IMG/VR virus record: IMGVR_UViG_3300016457_000282
Location: 1-64,000 of that record
Source of the DNA: a virus
Length of the DNA: 64,000 bases
Strand: one strand, 5' to 3'
Part shown: positions 2,524 through 58,335 of the stretch, in pieces
Layout of the letters: each line of letters starts with the position of its first letter
Position numbering within the stretch: the stretch's first letter is position 1
The notes under the pieces: generated by a model
What the model was told of the DNA's origin: nothing
Database searches by the model: none
The model's input: only the letters and a program-made list of their open reading frames with translations
Program-made: the position numbers and the translations under genes

Positions 2524-5500
2524 ATGGCCGAAGAGTATATAGTAGAAATAGGTGTTGAGAATAAGGAGGAGTTAGAAAAACTCCGTACCCAAGTCGCGAA
2601 AACCGCTGAGTCTGTCCAAACCCTTTCTGAAACTGTACGTAAGCTCGCTGAAAGTCAACGACAATTAGTTGAGTCGATTCGTAATACCGCCCGGAGTACC
2701 CAAGCTTCTGTTAAGTCCACCCAAAGTGCTTCGAAGGCCACTTCACAGTACGCCTCCTCTGTTCTCACGTTAAGGACTGCGTTTATTGCTATTGCCTCTG
2801 CAGCTGGGTTGGTAACTGCAGCGATTAACTCTAAAAAGATCTCGATGAGCTTAGCGAATAAGTTGTACGTACTTTATACGCGCTCAGCCCAAAGCGCTGC
2901 TCGAGCAGTCACCTCATTTGCAGTACAGCATCGCTTCCTTGGTACCGTTTTGACGCAAACCGTTCATATACTTTCCACTACAACTTCTGCTTGGATTACT
3001 TGGGCAAAAGGATCAATCCCTGCTACTGCCGCAATGAAACAGTCTTTAAATTCTGTGCGAGATGCGCTCAGAGTGTTGTTCACCGAGTTTCGCAGGGGAC
3101 CTTTTACTTGGATAGCTTCTCAGTTTACGCACGTTGCAGAAGTTGGTAAGTCTGCGTTCGTTTCTATTGCTGTTTATGCTGTAAGGGCAGCTACTAGGTT
3201 AGTTGAGTTCTTGACTCCTGCTGTTGCTACGGTAACGCGCTTGTTTTTGAAGTTGAGCGATTCTCTTACTCCAGTAAGGGAAGCTCTTTCTCGTCTGTTT
3301 GTTAGACTGAGAATTCCAGACGCCTTTACTAAGCTAACCGAAGTTTTTACCAGGCTTAAAGTGATAATCGTTGATGTCGCGGATGTTATCTCTACTAAGT
3401 TTGTGTCTGGACTTCGTGTCGTAGCCGACCTCTGGAAAGGCTTACTCCGACTTGCTTATTCCCTACGTGATCGTGTAGCCCAGATCGGGAGTGTGGTGAA
3501 GTCTAAGTTAGCCGGCAAGATAGGACTGACCGCTAGTTTTGCGTTTTTAGGTACTGTATTGGATAAGGTGCGAGACAAGATCTTGCAGCTCGGGGCTCGT
3601 ATTAACGAATCCCTAGGTGGTGAGGCCGTTTCTATAGGCGCGAAGTTATCTAAACCTTTTGTGGCGATGATGGGGAGTTTGACCATTCTTTCCGGGAAAC
3701 TGTTGCGTTTCTTTCCCTTGACTAAGAAGTTAGGCTCTACACTAACTACGTTGGGGTACTCCCTCGCTTCTGTGTCCTCGTTTTCGCGGTCGTGGTCTAT
3801 GGTAATGTCCCATTTGGATAAGACATTACCTGGAGTCAACGACCGATTACGCAGAGTTACTCGCGGTTTCTCAGAGTTGACCGGTAAGATTAACATACAA
3901 ACGGCCGCGCTTCCTAGATTGATCAAGGCACTTGGGGAAGTCACCTTTCACTACCTTATGATATTCAAGTTTAATGTTAGTCTAGCTCACGGATTCGAGC
4001 TCTTGGGTGAGAAGCTCTCTTACTTTGGTGAAGCCATGCTCGAGCACTTCTCCGAATCGTATAGAGTCAGTTCTGAGATGATTCGCACGCAGGTTGATTT
4101 GAACCGAGCGGTTCGGAGGTATGCTGAGTTGACCGGCGATGCTTCTATGAGTGCAAAAGATTGGCTCCAGTGGTCCGACAGACTTGCTCTTTCTGCAGGT
4201 AAAAACGTTTCAGAGATGCGCCGGGTTACCGGTGCTCTGTTGGATTTTGCGGCTTTGTATAAGTTGAACCAAAAGGAGACGAAGCGATTCATTTCTTTGA
4301 TGACAGACGTTTCGAGTTTCTTGGGCAAAGATGTGTTCGAGACCTTGCAACATGTCCACGGTGCGTTGGCTGGGTTAACTAATTCAGCCATGATTTTGGG
4401 CATTAACATAGACCACCTCAGAGAGAAGACTAAGTTTTACGAAGAACAACTCCGGAAAGAAGGCACCGAAACTGGAAAGTCCGTCAAACAAAAAGCGAGG
4501 ATGCTCGCTCTTATACAGGAGTTGAGTTACTTACAGGGTGTTAACAATAGGTTGATGGAAACAGGGTATGGTATTCTGAGACGTTATCGCGTTTCTCAAG
4601 AACTTCTCGCGGCCCAAACTGGAAATTATGTAACTCCTATTTTGAATGCTTATTACAAAATTTTGACCCGAATTAACGAGGTCATGGCTCAGCCCGGGAT
4701 TGGAGGTTTTATCACTACGATGAAGGCCGCTGGTGCCGCCTCACTTGATTTGCTAGGACGTTTTGTAAAACTCGGAGCGCAGTTGTTTGTATTGATTGAG
4801 ACTGTACATTTAGTTGAAAAGGCGTTAACAGCACTAAACGCAGCCTTTGACGTCTTTGGGATGACTCAGAGAACAGCTCTTGCTCCTCTATTCGTGATGA
4901 GAGATGGTATGGTCAAAACTAGTTTTACTGCCTCGTCACTAAGCAAAGTTCTCAAGAGGTTAAGCGTTTACATTGGTACTACCTTTGTAAACTTCTTCAA
5001 AAACGGTGCCAAGGCTGTTAAAGGCCTTGTTGTAGAGTTAAGAACTGCGATCTCCACATTAATGGCGACTAAAGTTCCCAAGGCCATTTTTGGCCCAGCT
5101 CTAGCATCTGCTATGGTTCCAGAAAGGGGTGTGATTAGGAAAGCTCTGGCTGCTAGTAAGTTGATGCAAGCGACTTTTATGGCCGAAGGGTTGGTGCTGG
5201 CGAAGAAGGTAACTCCTATGGTACAGAAGCACGCTAAACAGGTTCGAGATTTGTACTTAATTACTCATGACGTCGCCGGAGCTCAACGGGAGTGGGCTAA
5301 TACCATAATTACGTTTACTGGGGCGGCCGGGGGTTTGTCTAAAGTATGGTACACTTTCTTAGGTGTCGTTACAAAAGTTAAAGGTGCCGTGTTAAAACTC
5401 ATTAACATATTCAAAGGCTTTGCCAAGATTTTTGGGATTATTTTGATCGTCATTCCCGCGGTGTATAAAGCCTTCAAAGAAGCGCTTATCCCGGCTTTTA

Positions 5501-8500
5501 AGGAAACTTTTGGGGAGTCCGAAACTTTTCGGGCCGCGGTTTCTGCACTAGGGAAAGTTTTGGGTTGGTTAGGAAAAATCATTGTACAGATTGTTACTGG
5601 CCCCGTTAAGCTGTTTGCGACGGGAATCGCTGGGACTGCAGGTGTTATTTCGTATGCACTGGGATTGATTATTAAGTACAGGGGCGTTCTTCTCCGCTTA
5701 ACAGGACCTTTCTATTTACTCGGGAAGTCCGTCTTTAATGTGGGGAAGTGGTTCGGTATTTGGGGTAAGTCTGTTGACTCCTTGAACAAGAAACTTGACA
5801 GTGCTGGCGAGACTTTGATCAAGTTTGGAGAACGGTCTGCAGATAATGCTCGAGCTATAATTGGGCTGAACAAGGTACTACAGACTAACATCGATCGTAC
5901 TGCGCGGTTGCGAAAGGAACTTGCTGAAGGAATGAAGAGACGACAAGAGGAACTGGGACTGAACCTTTCGTCTGCTAAGTCGTTGGAGCGAGTTGTTAAC
6001 GCTATTCAGGAGTATCGAGATGCCTACCAAGAGTTCCTCGAAGTTCAAGATGAGATTGAGAAAGGTAGGACGACTGAGGGTAAGCAGTTAGAAGATGCAG
6101 AGGCTTTACATAGGAGAAGTACCGAAGCGGTTCAGGAGCTTTCGAAGGCGCGTTCCGCTCTTGCAGAGAATTTGAAGAAGCAGTTTGAAATTACAGGAGC
6201 CCAGATTAAGGAAACTAAAACGTTGGTAAGTTTGTACTCAAAGTACACTAAAGCTATTGGCGACGTTTCGACTGGACAAGTAGTTACTCTCAAAACTGGG
6301 CAAGCTATTTCACGGATTTGGCAAGGCTTAAATCAGATTACACAGGGAAACTTAAGTGGGATTAAGACAACCGCAGAAGCGTACAACTCGTTAGCAGGTA
6401 TACTTCGTGATATGGCCTCTAAAGCTAGCCCTTCACTACGGGCCGCGTTGGTAGCAGAAGCTAAGTCTTATGAGAAGCAAGCTGGTATACTAACTAAGGT
6501 AATGGAGAGGACCAAAGGGAAGGTCAAAATTGATGAAAAATTAATCGAGACTTCCTTCAAAGTCTCCGCTGCCCAACGTGCTGTGAATGACGAATTACAA
6601 AGGCACCAAGCAATTTTGACTTACTTACATAAATCGATTTCCGATACAACTGAGGGACTGGGTCAGTTCGCGAATGTGTATTCTAAAGATGTAACAGTCT
6701 CGGCCGAAACTGCCGCCCGTGTACAGCTCGCTTTAGCGAAGATCTCCGAAGTAGGTGCTCGTCGCTACGAAGAAGCTATCAATGGTAATATAGACTCTCT
6801 TAAAGTGTACCGGAACTATCTTGAAACAATTCAGAAGTCCCAGAACGACGAATTTGCCACTCTTGTTAAGGACGCAAAGGGGAGACAGCTCCTGAATGCT
6901 TACTTGGAAGCACAGATTCGAACCGTTGATAACTTGATAAAGTCTTATGAGAGTGAGTCTCAAGTTCATGTAACTTTATCGGCTCGTATAAAAGCACGAC
7001 TCGCTACTTTGAAGGCGCAGAATAAGGTAACAACGGAAACTCTGAAGCTTCGGAAACTTCTACTTGACCTTTGGAAGTCTGAGTTTAACCTCCATTCTCG
7101 GTTAAACGCCCTTACGTTACAGGGGTTGACTACAAGAGAAAAGAGAGCCCAAGCAGAACAGTATCTTAGCGAGGCTTTACAACAAAGTATCGAGCAGTAT
7201 AGCAGAGCAGGACTTTCTCTCAAAGCCTTTGATGATTACGAGAAAGGGGCTATTTCAACTACTACAGCCGTTAGACAGGCTCTGGTGCAATTACAAGGTC
7301 GTACCGACTTGTTAAGTAGGGCTATTAAGGAAACCCTCTTAGAAGCTCTGTCTCGTGCTACATCTCAACAGCGTGAGTATGCGGCTATGACGATCCAAAG
7401 TGCGAGGCGGATTAAAGAACTCGAGAAAGTAATTCACCCTGTTTATACTACTTTTGGGAATTACTCGAATCTGATCGCTGATTTGGTTAATCGTTCTCGT
7501 GACCTAGCAAAGCAGACAGGGATTTCGGCCCTCGCCTTTGATTCCTCTACGGTTACTGTGAGTGAACTGGCTTCTTATCTCGCCCTTTTAAGCGCACATC
7601 AAGTTGATTACAACAATGTTTCAAAAGAGACCGCTCAAGAAGTTACCTCTCTAGTTGAGAAGTTACTCGAGCTGACCAGAGTTGATGTCCCCCAATGGGG
7701 GTCAAGCTTAGCTAATGTATTTGAGAGCTTACAAGGGAAGACTAAGGATTTCATTTCAGCGAATGATTACCTCAAACCCGCTCTCCTGAACGCTATCTTT
7801 GGATTTAGGGGGTTGGTTGACAGAGTCCGTGAGCTTGATGCTAACCTCGCTCCTGTTATACAAAGCGTGTTAGACAGCGCTTCGGCGATGTATGAAGCTA
7901 AGAGTTCTTCTTCGGCTTATAGTGAGGGGTTGAGTAAAATCACGAGTTTGGAAGAGCAAGTACGTACCGCCCTTAGTAGCGTACTCCCTCATTTAAACGC
8001 GCAAGTTCAGGCTTTAGCTAAAGGGAAAGTGCAAACTGCTGACATGATCGCGAAGACTCAAGATTATGCTAGGATCGTTTCAATACTGGTTTCCCAGTTA
8101 AACACATTGACTGATGCTGAGGAACGTTTGCGAGAAAGCCGCCGTAAGAATTTGGAGTTGAGTTCCTCTTTGGTATTTTCCACTCAGCAACTTCATGAGA
8201 ATGTGTCCGAGCTCGCTAACATTGCTGTACAAGATCTGATTCAACAGTACCGACGAGCGGGTGTGGTACTGAGTGAATCGCAGAAACAAGCACTGGAGGA
8301 CATAACAAGGACTATTACAGGTTACACAGAGTTAACTGAGTTGGCTCGTAGACGAGTTGATACTTTTACGAAGTTCGTGGACGCTAAGCTGGCCGAACAA
8401 ACACGCGCTTGGTCGCGCAATAAGGATGAAGTTGAAGCTTTTGCTAATGGCTTGAGGACTATTGGCGAGAGTGCAATGCAAGGAATCTTGAAGAACTATG

Positions 8501-48856: not shown

Positions 48857-49327
48857 ATGCTGAGCGAGTTAAAGGATTTGTTAGAAAAAGTGAAGCGAGA
48901 GCAACAGAGAAAAAGAAAGGAAAGAGGTATACTTCGTATATTAGTACTAACAAAGCTAGTAAACCTAAAGCTTTACTAAGTACGAAGTTGACTCGGTATG
49001 AATGGGAATGGTTACCTTATCGTTCTCTATCAGCGCGGATGACAGAGTGGTCAGCAGAAAGTAATCAGAAAAAAGAGAGAAGATAAAGAAGAATAGTGCA
49101 CTGACAGATTTGTTGTTGACAGCAAAGAGTGAAGTTAAGAGAGGACGACTGAGGAGAAAGAAATCTGAGTTAGTTAGAGATCCTAAAGTCCAAACCGAGT
49201 ATGAGTTGAAGTTGTTTGAATTAGAAGAGAAGTACTCGTCAATCTGTACTATTGGAACGACTCTCTTGGAAATCCTAGAGAGATTCCTCAAGGAGATTTG
49301 AATGATTTAGCGAGATTGATAGATTAA
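48857..49327 (+). pseudogene. Frameshifted paralog of 43748..44251
   Basis: KASKPKALL...EWEWLPY, LVRDP.VQT.Y.LKL.ELEEKY and YYWNDS.G.PREIP.GDL.DLARL are spread over different frames. Confidence 0.75.
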
Positions 49328-49345
49328 TGTAGAAAGGAGGCTATC

Positions 49346-49531
49346 ATGGAAAAAATAGTAGGTAAGATAGTGTACGATCGAGACTCAAAACGATATCATA
49401 GATACTTAGTGGAAGGAGAAGAGATAGTAGGTACGATTTATCTTACAAAAGGAGCTGCTAAGGTGAAACAATACCAAATTACACTTGTACCTCTAACTGA
49501 GGAAGAAGGAATTGTACAGAAACAATTCTAA
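49346..49531 (+). CDS. Small hypothetical protein
   Basis: AAGGAGG RBS; DSKRYHRY...GTIY. Confidence 0.55.
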   Translation: MEKIVGKIVYDRDSKRYHRYLVEGEEIVGTIYLTKGAAKVKQYQITLVPLTEEEGIVQKQF

Positions 49532-49599
49532 CAGATCAGACAGGCATTGAAGTTGCTATTAGTGATTCATTATGTTATTAGAAAGCTGTAATATTTGTT

Positions 49600-49900
49600 T
49601 CTCCGTTAGTGTTAAGGAGAGGTTGAAGCGCGAGCTTGGTGTTACGCCAAGACTAATTTACTTACCATTGTGCGTAGTCTTGAGCAGGTTCGCCTCGCTT
49701 CGTCTCGGCAAAGCTGCGCAAGATAGAACCTCTCCAACTTTCACAAAAGAGGTCGCTGTCGTGAATCCTTTAAGTTTGTACTCTCAAATTGTGAAAAGAA
49801 CTTTCAGAAGAGAAAAAGACGAGAGTTCGCCGAGTTCTTCATAGGTACTCTTAGTTTGGTTGTAAACCCTCACGACTGGTTGGACTGTCTCACTCTAACT
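49600..49900 (+). ncRNA. Putative structured RNA upstream of the RT (msr/msd-like candidate)
   Basis: Nested stems: GGAGAGGTT(49616)/AACCTCTCC(49727); GCGC-AGCTT/AAGCT-GCGC; CAAGACTA(49648)/TAGTCTTG(49675); GTCGTGA(49758)/TCACGAC(49870). Confidence 0.45.
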
Positions 49901-49934
49901 ATAAACCATATAACGCCTATTAAAGAGGAATAGT

Positions 49935-50897
49935 ATGTTCAGCTTGGACGAACTGTTGTCGATCTTTAACGATGTTGAAGAAGTTGAGATGTCTCCTTCC
50001 TTTGCTTTTGTTTACTCACAGTTGGTAGAGAAAGGCACTTCTGCTTTTTGGTTAGGAGTGCGTAAGCACGCTTTGAGAGATTGGTATGAACAGTACCATA
50101 ATGTGTTAAGCGAAGACGTTAAAGTTGAGTATACTCCTGTTAGGATCCCTAAAAGGTCTGGTGGTTTTAGAACTCTGTACATTCCTTCAGATCAACTCAA
50201 GGAGAGACAGCGAGCGTGGTTAAAGCTAACCTACATTTTGGTTCCTAAAGTGACGCACGCTTATGCGTTCGAGAAACGCAGATCTTTACGAGATGCTCTT
50301 GAAAAGCATGTAGGTAACTACTTGTTCCTAAGACTGGACATAAAGGATGCTTATCCTTCGATCAGAAAAAAAGTTCTCGACTCAGTACTGGTAAAGCACG
50401 ATGTGCCGCTTTCTGTTAGACAAATGTTGATAAGAGATTGTTACTTTAAAGGTTTACCTCAAGGAGCTCCTACTTCGGGCCGGTTGTTCAATATCGTGCT
50501 TTCTCAGACTGATTTAGTAATTGCAGAAGTAATTGCGAGACTACACGGTGTATACACTCGTTACGCAGATGATATACTAGTGTCCTTTCCTAAAGACGCT
50601 AAAATCTCCATCTCAAAAACGAGTCAGGTCATTAACCGTTACCTAAACAAAATCAGTCTTGAGCTTCATCCTTCTAAGTTAAGAGTCGGAAGAGGCAAGC
50701 TACGAGTTTTGGGTTGTGTAGTTCATTCTGACAAAGTTACGATATCGCGTAAGGTTAGAAGATTGTACCGAGCTATGCTTCACAACAATAAGACAGGTAA
50801 GATCTCATTAAGTAAACATAAAATCAACGGTATCAAAGGTTGGTTAAATATGGTGTACCGAAGTGAAACGGTTCCGGCTATAGGACCTATCTCATAG
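49935..50897 (+). CDS. Retron-type reverse transcriptase
   Basis: IPKRSGGFR, AYAF...ALEKH (region X-like), LDIKDAYPSI, GLPQGAPTS, YTRYADD, VLG (region Y-like). Confidence 0.85.
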   Translation: MFSLDELLSIFNDVEEVEMSPSFAFVYSQLVEKGTSAFWLGVRKHALRDWYEQYHNVLSEDVKVEYTPVRIPKRSGGFRTLYIPSDQLKERQRAWLKLTYILVPKVTHAYAFEKRRSLRDALEKHVGNYLFLRLDIKDAYPSIRKKVLDSVLVKHDVPLSVRQMLIRDCYFKGLPQGAPTSGRLFNIVLSQTDLVIAEVIARLHGVYTRYADDILVSFPKDAKISISKTSQVINRYLNKISLELHPSKLRVGRGKLRVLGCVVHSDKVTISRKVRRLYRAMLHNNKTGKISLSKHKINGIKGWLNMVYRSETVPAIGPIS

Positions 50898-50988
50898 TGA
50901 GTGTTACGCTCACTTGCTACTTAGTCACTTCGCAGTCGTAAAGGTACAAGGTCTCAGCCGGAACTACTAAATTAAGAGGAGGTAAAAT

Positions 50989-51354
50989 ATGGGAACACAA
51001 GCTACTGTTACTGTATACGATGAAGACGACCGTCCTATCTGTTTAATCTACATACTGTTTGATGGATATTTGAGCGGTGTAGGAAAGCAGCTACAAGAGT
51101 TTCTAAAAGTACGTCGCTATGTTAACGGAATTCCTGTAGGAGCGACAAATGTCTACAACGGAATGACAGACCTTGCGGCTCAGCTTGTTTGGTATTTGAA
51201 GAAAGGAGAGTCAGGTAATGTGTACTTAGTGCCATTAGAAGAAGAACTCGGCTGTACAGACTACGAGTACGAAATTCGGTTTGTAGACGGCAACGCTCAC
51301 TTACGGGAATTGACACAGAAAGTAGTACTTTATCCTGAAGTAAAAATTGAGTAA
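50989..51354 (+). CDS. Conserved phage hypothetical protein
   Basis: MGT.......Y...DGY..G.G..L..FL...NGM..LAAQLV. Confidence 0.6.
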   Translation: MGTQATVTVYDEDDRPICLIYILFDGYLSGVGKQLQEFLKVRRYVNGIPVGATNVYNGMTDLAAQLVWYLKKGESGNVYLVPLEEELGCTDYEYEIRFVDGNAHLRELTQKVVLYPEVKIE

Positions 51355-54764: not shown

Positions 54765-55754
54765 ATGTATAGAATCGAAGGAAGTTACGCGTTAAAAGAA
54801 GTACTAGTAAAGTGTCTGCGAAACAATTTATCTGTTTTGGCCTCAGGGGCGCCAGGTATTGGGAAGAGCGAAATTTTCTTCCAAGCTATAAGTGAAGTCT
54901 CAGAATCGTTTGCTGTACTGACACCGACTGAGGTACGACTCTATTTAATGGAGCCAGGTGAGGCTAAAGGCATTCCTTGGCTAGTTGAGAGAAGGACTGT
55001 TTGGTCTCGGCCTGATTGGCTACCAGAAAAGGAAAACACGGCTCTGTTTTTCGACGACATTCATTTAGTTCGTGAATACAATCAAAGCCCTTTATATGAG
55101 TTACTATTGTGCAGAAGACTGCATGGACATACAGTTCCAGAGTCGACCAGGTTCGTTGCAGCTGGAAATATTGGTCTGGCGTCAGCTAGCGCCTCTGAGA
55201 TAATGGCGCCTATTATGGATAGGTTCGACCTTTTCGTCGGGTACACTCCTACTCTAGAAGACTTCGTAAAGTATGCGATTTCTCAAGGTCTTGATAATAG
55301 AATTATTACATTCTTGTCTTCTTATGGAACAGACTACTTATATACGCCTGATCCAGGAACGAGTCAGAAGTTTCCATCGCCTCGAGCTTGGTTTTCTTTA
55401 GATAAGGCACTTAAGGCAGGATTCTCAATTGAAGTGGCTCCAGGTGTAGTAGGAATCGATGCTGGATCCAAAATAGTAGATGCTTGGCCTTTTCTGAATC
55501 AGTCTCTCAATGATCTTTTGTCGAAAGATTTCACTGACGCTGATTTGAAAGATCAAGTAGCCGCGGCAGCCTTTCTATCGTCATACAAGCCCACAGACCG
55601 CATACTTGTGACAATTAAGAAGTTGACTCCGGACGCTCGAGCTTGTTACTTCAGACTAGTTCTCACTCGATTTCCCGATCAGGTCAAGTTCCTGTATCGT
55701 AATAGACACATGAAAGAAATTGTAGATGAACTAGCAGCTATTTTAGGAGAGTAA
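54765..55754 (+). CDS. MoxR-like AAA+ ATPase
   Basis: GAPGIGKS, LFFDD, AAGN, DRF, SPRAW. Confidence 0.85.
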   Translation: MYRIEGSYALKEVLVKCLRNNLSVLASGAPGIGKSEIFFQAISEVSESFAVLTPTEVRLYLMEPGEAKGIPWLVERRTVWSRPDWLPEKENTALFFDDIHLVREYNQSPLYELLLCRRLHGHTVPESTRFVAAGNIGLASASASEIMAPIMDRFDLFVGYTPTLEDFVKYAISQGLDNRIITFLSSYGTDYLYTPDPGTSQKFPSPRAWFSLDKALKAGFSIEVAPGVVGIDAGSKIVDAWPFLNQSLNDLLSKDFTDADLKDQVAAAAFLSSYKPTDRILVTIKKLTPDARACYFRLVLTRFPDQVKFLYRNRHMKEIVDELAAILGE

Positions 55755-57832: not shown

Positions 57833-58335
57833 ACAGAAGATTAGCTCAACTCTTTGCAGGTAGTACTATCTGTCTTGCTGCTCTTACTTCATTTACAGCA
57901 GGTAAATACATTAGCGACAAATTTTCTCAGTACGACTATATCATTGCTCGACAACAAGAGATCATCTCTGATTTAACCAAGCAAGTAAGTTCCCTCACAG
58001 TAGAGCTCAAATCCCTGAAGTACAAGAACTATGTCATCGCTACTGTTACTGCATATTCGCCCTCCATTCGTGAATGCGACTCTACTCCCTATACCACTGC
58101 TTTTCTCAAAAGAGTTCATCCTAAGTACGTTGCTATTTCTCGAGACTTACTGCGCCAAGGTTGGTCGCCGGGTCGAAAAGTTTATATTGAAGGAATTGGA
58201 GTCAAAATCATTGGAGATCTAATGTCTCCAAAAGTAAAAGGACCACACGTTGATGTATTCATGTGGCGTAAAGAAGACGCTCTTAAGTTCGGTAAGTCCA
58301 AGAGATATGTTTTCTTAATGCAAGACTCGTTGTAA
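57829..58335 (+). CDS. 3D-domain protein (cell-wall hydrolase-like)
   Basis: TM + coiled coil, VTAYS..ECDSTP..TA, VAISRDL, D.M, VDVF...A.KFG. Confidence 0.8.
   Translation: MNRRLAQLFAGSTICLAALTSFTAGKYISDKFSQYDYIIARQQEIISDLTKQVSSLTVELKSLKYKNYVIATVTAYSPSIRECDSTPYTTAFLKRVHPKYVAISRDLLRQGWSPGRKVYIEGIGVKIIGDLMSPKVKGPHVDVFMWRKEDALKFGKSKRYVFLMQDSL

Follow-up and report, generated by a model that had tools for sequence, protein, structure and literature searches.

Here, we propose that a phage-borne reverse transcriptase (RT) forms part of a retron-derived module that has no effector and that is, in our judgement, rather likely to copy several cognate template RNAs into short single-stranded DNAs (ssDNAs). 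The RT gene lies in the window, by which we mean the whole 64,000-nt stretch of DNA analysed here (positions 1 to 64,000 of the IMG/VR virus record IMGVR_UViG_3300016457_000282). The proposal is based on the RT matching retron RTs while having intact catalytic motifs, on an RNA unit with the architecture of a retron non-coding RNA (ncRNA) standing at the 3' end of the RT gene in all five known lineages of the clade, and on the covariation of these units and their exclusive co-occurrence with this RT clade. A preliminary description of the locus had reported a phage-encoded retron-type RT with a structured leader of ~400 nt and no obvious effector. Our analysis agrees with it on the enzyme, the phage setting and the lack of an effector, and arrives at a different picture of the RNA.

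The reverse transcriptase and its relatives

The RT gene (49935..50897, plus strand) encodes a compact protein of 320 aa with a clade-specific N-terminal extension of ~60 aa. It is the only RT of the genome, and no endonuclease or integrase domain is fused to it. The motifs LPQGAPTS and YTRYADD can be read directly from the open reading frame (ORF), and the catalytic motifs are invariant in all five RT homologues. The protein matches Pfam RVT_1 at 1.8e-23, its top PADLOC model is RT_II-A (2.1e-43, 146.6 bits, with RT_VI at 94 bits), and every one of the best 25 PADLOC matches listed is a retron RT model. Among NCBIfam models retron_St85_RT comes first with 158 bits, compared with 61.6 bits for group II, 56.3 for Drt2 and 37.5 for Drt3a. 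No named family cut-off is reached, retron_St85_RT having a curated cut-off of 235 bits and Ec67 (82.6 bits) one of 450. The closest solved structure is the Ec86 RT (4.5e-31 over residues 64-309) and the top matches in the PDB are retron RTs, while motif 4, LPQGAPTS, is unlike that of the diversity-generating retroelement (DGR) type. On these profile, structure and motif comparisons the RT is of retron type, and is not a group II, DGR or defence-associated (DRT) enzyme; a grouping with group II or DGR RTs, the case named in the preliminary description as contrary to its view, is not seen in the profile scores, the PDB matches or motif 4.

Alignment to the Ec86 RT places ALEKH beneath NATPH and VLG beneath VTG, as had been noticed. 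Across the clade, region X reads ALEKH (window RT and homologue P0002), SLEKH, ALEVH or ALKVH, so that H is invariant while N and A are lost, and region Y reads VLG, LLG or ILG, with G invariant and T replaced by L. The residues kept are those that are most conserved among retrons, the H of NAxxH in region X and the G of VTG in region Y (Mestre et al. 2020, PMC7736814).

Among 5.8 billion proteins the RT has four close relatives, at 84, 64, 57 and 51% identity; the next match stands at 41% and all others at 37% or less. The relatives lie on syntenic phage fragments (contigs L003, L004, L170 and L171, here called L003-type; L005; L006 and L007; and L008), which together with the window make up five RT lineages. 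The 7.7-kb contig L172, which comes under another sample accession, shares 97.4% identity with the window. When IMG/VR and metagenomes were scanned with the RT alignment, hundreds of retron-like RTs were confirmed (534 viral, 555 metagenomic), none of them above 37% identity, and a scan of viral contigs with the RT alone gave no further clade members. A 209-aa neighbour of the RT, used as a query, matched only the window and L003 lineages. Thus retron-like RTs are common in viruses, where a survey had already noted them (PMC13681634), and the clade of the window RT is, as far as these searches reach, small. Within it the RT keeps the same syntenic place across related phages, and the gene order around it is mosaic. 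A more distant RT, 41% identical, is encoded on a 960-nt contig (L176) from the sample accession of L172; its motifs, NASAH and ITG, are canonical, its stop codon is followed by a different hairpin, of 9 bp, and the contig carries transposase-adapter sequence at both ends.

RNA units at the RT gene

In the window, an ncRNA unit (50870..50965, plus strand) overlaps the end of the RT gene. It is closed by an outer helix, pairing 50870-50879 with 50956-50965, and an inner helix, pairing 50883-50888 with 50949-50954, and within these lies the hairpin AGTGAG-TGTTACG-CTCACT (50896-50914, loop 50902-50908), which overlaps the TAG stop codon (50895-50897) and had been recognised in the preliminary description. 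A short variable region follows at 50915-50948. The unit folds with a z-score of -4.1, and none of 200 shuffles folds equally well. A hairpin with the TGTTACG loop (CGATACG in L005) is found at or just after the RT stop in 5/5 lineages, on the differing stems AGTGAG, GCAAG, AGTAG, AGTAG and GATGA, all of which still pair. Each is enclosed by its own long-range stem, the 5' arm of which lies inside the RT coding sequence in four of the five lineages. In the remaining one, L008, the 5' arm (a1) begins right after the RT stop and an intrinsic terminator stands directly 3' of the other arm (a2), in keeping with the unit being the end of the RT mRNA.

The window has a second unit, of 120 nt, upstream of the RT gene (49616..49735, plus strand). 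Clean a1/a2 repeats could not be identified at first, although a1, GGAGAGGTT (49616-49624), pairs with a2, AACCTCTCC (49727-49735). Between the arms lie the hairpin CTTGG-TGTTACG-CCAAG (49635-49651, with a 5-bp stem and its loop at 49640-49646) and a variable, template-like region of 75 nt (49652-49726). The loop is identical to that of the hairpin at the stop codon. The minimum-energy fold retains both closure and hairpin, and R1, our covariance model of the unit, scores it at 60.7 bits (E 1.4e-10). The upstream unit of L003 has the closure GGAAAGGTT/AACCTTTCC and the hairpin stem CTTAG/CTAAG, and so differs from the window by compensatory changes in both helices.

This unit takes the place of the proposed ~400-nt leader. 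As a whole, 49532-49934 does not fold unusually well (z = -1.0, with 14 of 100 shuffles folding equally well) and its 3' ~170 nt are coding, whereas only 49612-49739 is structured (z = -3.4; 2 of 200 shuffles) and covaries across homologues. Hence the structured RNA suspected there exists, as a shorter element, but the unit common to all relatives is the one at the 3' end of the RT gene. Between the window and L172 there are 7 substitutions in 49520-49940, all of them transitions and all within the variable segment (49672-49705), with none in the pseudogene described below. Such clustering fits, at the sequence level, a fast-evolving template region; alternatively it could be a small recombination patch. 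A 90-aa ORF at 49572-49844 spans the upstream unit and continues into the N-terminal portion of that pseudogene, and is probably spurious because it is not open in L003.

An upstream unit is present in the window, L003 and L005, and none was detected in L006 or in the available part of L008. In L006, at the place upstream of the RT where other lineages have this unit, ~10 tandem copies of a 7-nt AAAAATC-type repeat are found (L006:4484-4550).

Architecture and distribution of the unit family

An a1/a2 stem closes each of the units, which are 96-140 nt long and also comprise one short hairpin and a variable segment, usually a long stem-loop. The hairpin combines a conserved 7-nt loop, UGUUACG, with a varying stem. 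A GG within a1 does not vary in an alignment of eight units, and many units have an A-rich motif, UAAAG or UUAAG, just before a2. Most units of L003, L005, L006 and L170 have the long stem, which is weak or absent in the downstream units of the window and L003 and in the L008 unit. In outline this is the architecture by which a retron ncRNA is defined, namely pairing ends, a short hairpin and a variable stem-loop (PMC7736814), and the earlier expectation of an RNA associated with the RT is borne out in this form.

When 16 units were folded singly, with z-scores of -2.2 to -6.8, 15 kept both closure and hairpin in the minimum-energy fold; the sole exception (L170:9481-9608) kept the closure and lost the hairpin, so that the closure is retained in 16/16. 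Pairing holds in 97.9% of the cells of the eight-unit alignment, and two-sided changes are seen at 8 of 12 pairs (4 of 7 in the closure), a result reached by 0 of 500 shuffles; sliding the partners as a control lowers pairing to 37-59%. The figures are similar for an alignment of 11 rows fitted to the model.

The number of units differs from phage to phage. At least eight, three of them in tandem and two adjacent, occupy intergenic gaps of L005, always on the gene strand. The L003-type phage has at least six, including a tandem array of four (L170:8953-9604) that lies ~8.4 kb downstream of the RT and directly after a 168-aa gene. The otherwise collinear window is without this array; identity ends at 58325, and unrelated sequence with a short open frame begins at 58326.

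R1 also detects units outside its training set in L005, L008 and L170; the 868 kb searched around 80 other retron-like RTs of viruses gave no match. The 75-kb phage genome has this loop on a stem of at least 5 bp at exactly two places, one on either side of the RT and each on the RT strand. The control background, 1.3 Mb scanned on both strands, has one such hairpin. The bare heptamer TGTTACG was rejected as a window-wide motif: it occurs 8 times where 7.3 are expected and is therefore uninformative, only the hairpin context being specific.

Rfam gave no match in the whole window at gathering thresholds, and a permissive search of 49300-51100 gave only two long non-coding RNA matches, which we take as chance. 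A guide-like function of the variable regions was also rejected, as these match only themselves in all the sequence compared. A pseudoknot between the loop and a GUAA before a2 is possible by eye in four units and not in the others, and we make no claim for it.

Neighbouring genes

Between the upstream unit and the RT lies a broken small gene of a family that we call S56 (49761..49933, plus strand, 56 aa), with intact homologues in L003 and L006. Its frame is broken in the window by two +1 insertions (extra A's) in the A-runs 49794-49797 and 49813-49817. The intact L003 homologue is a 56-aa ORF (3965-4135) that ends one base before the RT start, and the differences between window and L003 over this stretch are mostly synonymous. 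The L006 homologue is a 55-aa ORF (6244-6411) downstream of the RT, 49% identical to the L003 protein (E 1e-17), and tblastn finds two further copies in L005, where S56 sits ~1.8 kb upstream of the RT. Assembly error was rejected as the cause of the break since both indels recur under another sample accession, in L172; S56 of the window is thus a real pseudogene. The small protein recurs in the clade but is dispensable in the window lineage. The family has no match among known families and no informative Atlas match, the matches there being unnamed clusters only.

The preliminary description had put forward the genes starting at 49346 and 50989 as possible effectors; neither has a significant family match or is conserved across the lineages. 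The 61-aa neighbour (49346..49531, plus strand) has no significant family match, reaching 19.7 bits against IPI_T4 (cut-off 25), and a 60-61-aa gene at its position was seen only in the L003-type contigs and L172. The 121-aa neighbour (50989..51354, plus strand) is a widespread phage hypothetical protein without a Pfam, PADLOC or NCBIfam match, which falls in the Atlas among viral hypothetical, unnamed clusters. Next to the RT in L006 and L008 it is absent, as is the 209-aa protein, and L005 has only scattered stretches resembling it, in different frames and with early stops, beside an intact RT; from these stretches the gene looks decayed there. No protein partner beside the RT is common to all five lineages, and among the RT neighbours we found no defence or effector match in PADLOC, Pfam or NCBIfam, as had been anticipated, and, among those recorded, no helix-turn-helix (HTH) partner. 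L006 also has two small Cas_csx3-family genes (L006:2481-2765 and 5935-6222), perhaps anti-CRISPR genes of the ring-nuclease type; one of them comes immediately after the unit that stands at the RT stop.

The phage and its sequence record

The 150,430-bp virus record, which is classed as having inverted terminal repeats, is its own reverse complement at every position. The true genome is thus ~75.2 kb, a 75,215-bp sequence folded back on itself, and the fold-back is probably an assembly artefact that doubles every feature as a mirror image. An apparent second RT copy at 99537-100496 was rejected for this reason. The phage setting of the RT is supported by tail PHROGs, a QueD-like gene, and HNH and LAGLIDADG endonucleases in the window, and by the finding of no tyrosine integrase in the phage sequence; no tRNA was found there either. 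The phage that hosts the RT module is probably virulent. Compared with the window at ~54868-54873, the L003-type homologue of its ATPase gene region has ~460 nt extra (L170:5014-5478), lying within a 482-aa ORF with an intein-splicing Pfam match; the window is without this segment.

Comparison with known systems

Type II-A retrons (Ec86/Eco1 and St85/Sen2) provide the best-matching RT family. Like the units, their RNA combines arms that pair at the ends with a short hairpin and a variable stem-loop, and Ec86 is itself carried in a P2-like prophage, just as the window RT is borne by a phage. In addition, the Ec86 msr stem AGAGGTT/AACCTCT (L173:2503-2531) is the same 7-bp core as that of the closing stem in most units. 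This could reflect shared ancestry or chance; run on the Ec86 locus, R1 matches only this stem. The window RT differs in scoring under the family cut-off, in keeping the NAxxH and VTG motifs only in part and in having no effector of the NDT type, and the RNA differs in that there are two to eight units per phage rather than one and in that the universal unit lies 3' of the RT gene rather than upstream of it.

Stand-alone (msr-msd)-RT cassettes are known (PMC7736814), and those of retron RT clades 2 and 11 (Mestre et al. 2020) consist, as here, of an RT and an ncRNA with no third component. Compared by description, they are bacterial and have a single ncRNA, whereas the window module belongs to a phage and has two units.

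The nearest precedent in function, and a very recent one, is that of phage UG27 RTs, which are accompanied by arrays of ncRNA units (~150 nt), conserved in structure and diverse in sequence, that give rise to cDNA hairpins of 50-100 nt (bioRxiv 10.64898/2026.09.22.753630). Both groups are phage RTs with several units of ~100-170 nt whose structure is conserved and whose sequence is diverse; in both, units are found in tandem as well as in intergenic regions nearby, close relatives differ by gain or loss of units, and a central hairpin is bracketed by short conserved motifs. UG27 RTs, however, are class 2 members of the unknown groups (UG), have 380-450 aa and a YSDD motif, and require two accessory proteins (sORF and bORF), whereas the window RT is shorter (320 aa), has YADD, is matched best by retron models and is without a partner common to all lineages. 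Of the UG27 motifs AUC-N7-UANAG and UUYA, the UANAG part fits the UAAAG ending of some units; in one unit inspected by eye the AUC spacing did not fit, and the hairpin loop showed no UUYA, the motifs not having been searched for systematically. By the published UG27 features, the window RT is not a member of that group. The top phage-database matches, MT838163 and MT836269, were considered and are not obvious UG27 examples, their RTs having YADD.

Lastly, the order of the window (structured template RNA, small ORF, RT) resembles that of the type VI retron Retron-Vpa2, in which a hybrid RNA (hyRNA) contains the msr-msd and the coding sequence of a small protein upstream of the RT (bioRxiv 10.1101/2025.10.22.683967). 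The window RT has another best model, though, there is no HTH protein, and the small ORF stands outside the closure and is broken.

Weighing the explanations

We read the unit as the cognate template RNA of the RT because of its retron ncRNA features and because it co-occurs only with this RT clade. Several observations count against this view. The NAxxH motif is kept only in part (ALEKH in the window RT, with just the H invariant across the clade), and a G right after a1 is found in just 5 of 11 aligned units, the others having A or T. R1 recognises only the hairpin of the downstream unit of the window, with E 0.14. The variable regions of the window would yield cDNAs without a significant hairpin (DNA fold z -0.5 and +0.9), so that the window may carry a reduced version, while the cDNA hairpins predicted for variable regions of L005 and L006 are significant (z -5.1 and -4.1). 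Many units lie 20-30 nt upstream of a gene start, a position that would suit a cis-regulatory leader too. In addition, no related phage without the RT was found in the scans with the RT, the RT alignment and the 209-aa neighbour; as there are only five lineages and no RT-less relative, the co-occurrence of units and RT is suggestive and not decisive.

The units might instead be phage cis-elements unrelated to reverse transcription, such as regulators in 5' leaders, sites of RNA processing or stability, or hot-spots at which recombination shuffles small gene cassettes, with the RT an orphan gene in the same variable region. Promoter-stem-loop repeats of T4-type phages offer an analogy. All units are on the gene strand, intergenic and often end 20-30 nt before a start codon, for example that of S56 (window, L003 and L005), of the RT (L005) or of the 121-aa gene (window); unit content also differs between collinear phages, the four-unit array of L170 being absent from the window from 58326 onward, and the gene order around the RT is mosaic. 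A set of general cis-elements does not account well, however, for a 75-kb genome with only two units, both flanking the RT, or for a unit at the RT stop in 5/5 lineages with a1 inside the RT coding sequence in four. Nor does it explain why the architecture is the defining one of retron ncRNAs (PMC7736814), and no promoter-like or terminator-like enrichment was found at the units. We regard this explanation as unlikely.

Two further explanations keep the RT and its RNA together. The module could be a retron for defence or superinfection exclusion with S56 as a cryptic small effector, like the type VI hybrid RNA, where RT-DNA derepresses a small toxin. The order unit, S56, RT in the window and L003 suggests as much, as do the S56 homologues that follow units in L005 and L006 and the type VI hyRNA, with its small-protein coding sequence next to the msr-msd upstream of the RT (bioRxiv 10.1101/2025.10.22.683967). 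S56 is nevertheless frameshifted twice in the window lineage, in two contigs of different sample accessions, beside an intact RT; it is not enclosed by a1/a2, and its place varies, being ~1.8 kb upstream of the RT in L005 and, in L006, downstream of the RT with a Csx3-like gene between. Given also that RT_VI scores 94 bits to the 146.6 of II-A, that no HTH partner is among the recorded neighbours and that S56 has neither a family nor an informative Atlas match, we consider an S56 effector quite improbable. Finally, the RT and its two flanking units could be a mobile retroelement, the units marking the ends of an RNA that is copied and re-inserted: homologous units do bracket the RT in the window, L003 and L005, and the RT mRNA would bear an RT-binding hairpin at its 3' end. 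This we think very improbable, since the RT stays at the same syntenic place in related phages with one copy per genome, units also occur in arrays far from it, an upstream unit is missing from L006 and from the available part of L008, and no integrase or endonuclease domain is fused to the RT. Moreover, among prokaryotic RT classes autonomous mobility has been demonstrated only for group II introns and not for retrons (PMC7736814).

Proposed mechanism and significance

Our favoured explanation is thus the effector-less, retron-derived phage module with several template RNAs. We infer that the RT would recognise the conserved hairpin of the unit, initiate next to the a1/a2 stem, as retron RTs do, and copy the variable segment into a short ssDNA, of ~75 nt from the upstream unit of the window and ~34 nt from the unit at the stop codon. 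As one unit always stands at the 3' end of the RT gene, the RT mRNA would include a template of its own, and with further units upstream or in arrays one RT would make several different ssDNAs. Such a module departs from canonical retrons in that the universal unit is 3' of the RT, there are several units, there is no effector and no branching G is conserved after a1.

What might its role be? Our guess is counter-defence or competition between phages. More speculatively, and with a low expectation that all of it is right, the module may be a phage-made factory for ssDNA from multiple templates, in which one RT reads a changeable library of units via the UGUUACG hairpin and the ssDNAs, made while the phage infects its host, serve as counter-defence decoys, the layout having an origin second to and independent of that of UG27. 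Such decoys might stand in for host multicopy single-stranded DNA (msDNA), keeping retron toxins silent, or might soak up immune proteins that sense ssDNA or DNA ends.

Viral retron-like RTs have already been listed in surveys without a stated function, stand-alone retron cassettes are known, and UG27 arrays were described in a 2026 preprint; retrons themselves have been studied almost wholly as bacterial, toxin-antitoxin-like defence systems with one template RNA. The locus described here suggests that an RT of the retron lineage has reached a UG27-like, multi-template layout in phages, with a recognition hairpin that is defined and one template in the 3' end of its own mRNA. If so, it would provide a compact RT of 320 aa, a short and portable recognition element and naturally exchangeable templates, all of interest for retron-based ssDNA engineering, as well as a second test case for how a phage may benefit from making ssDNA.

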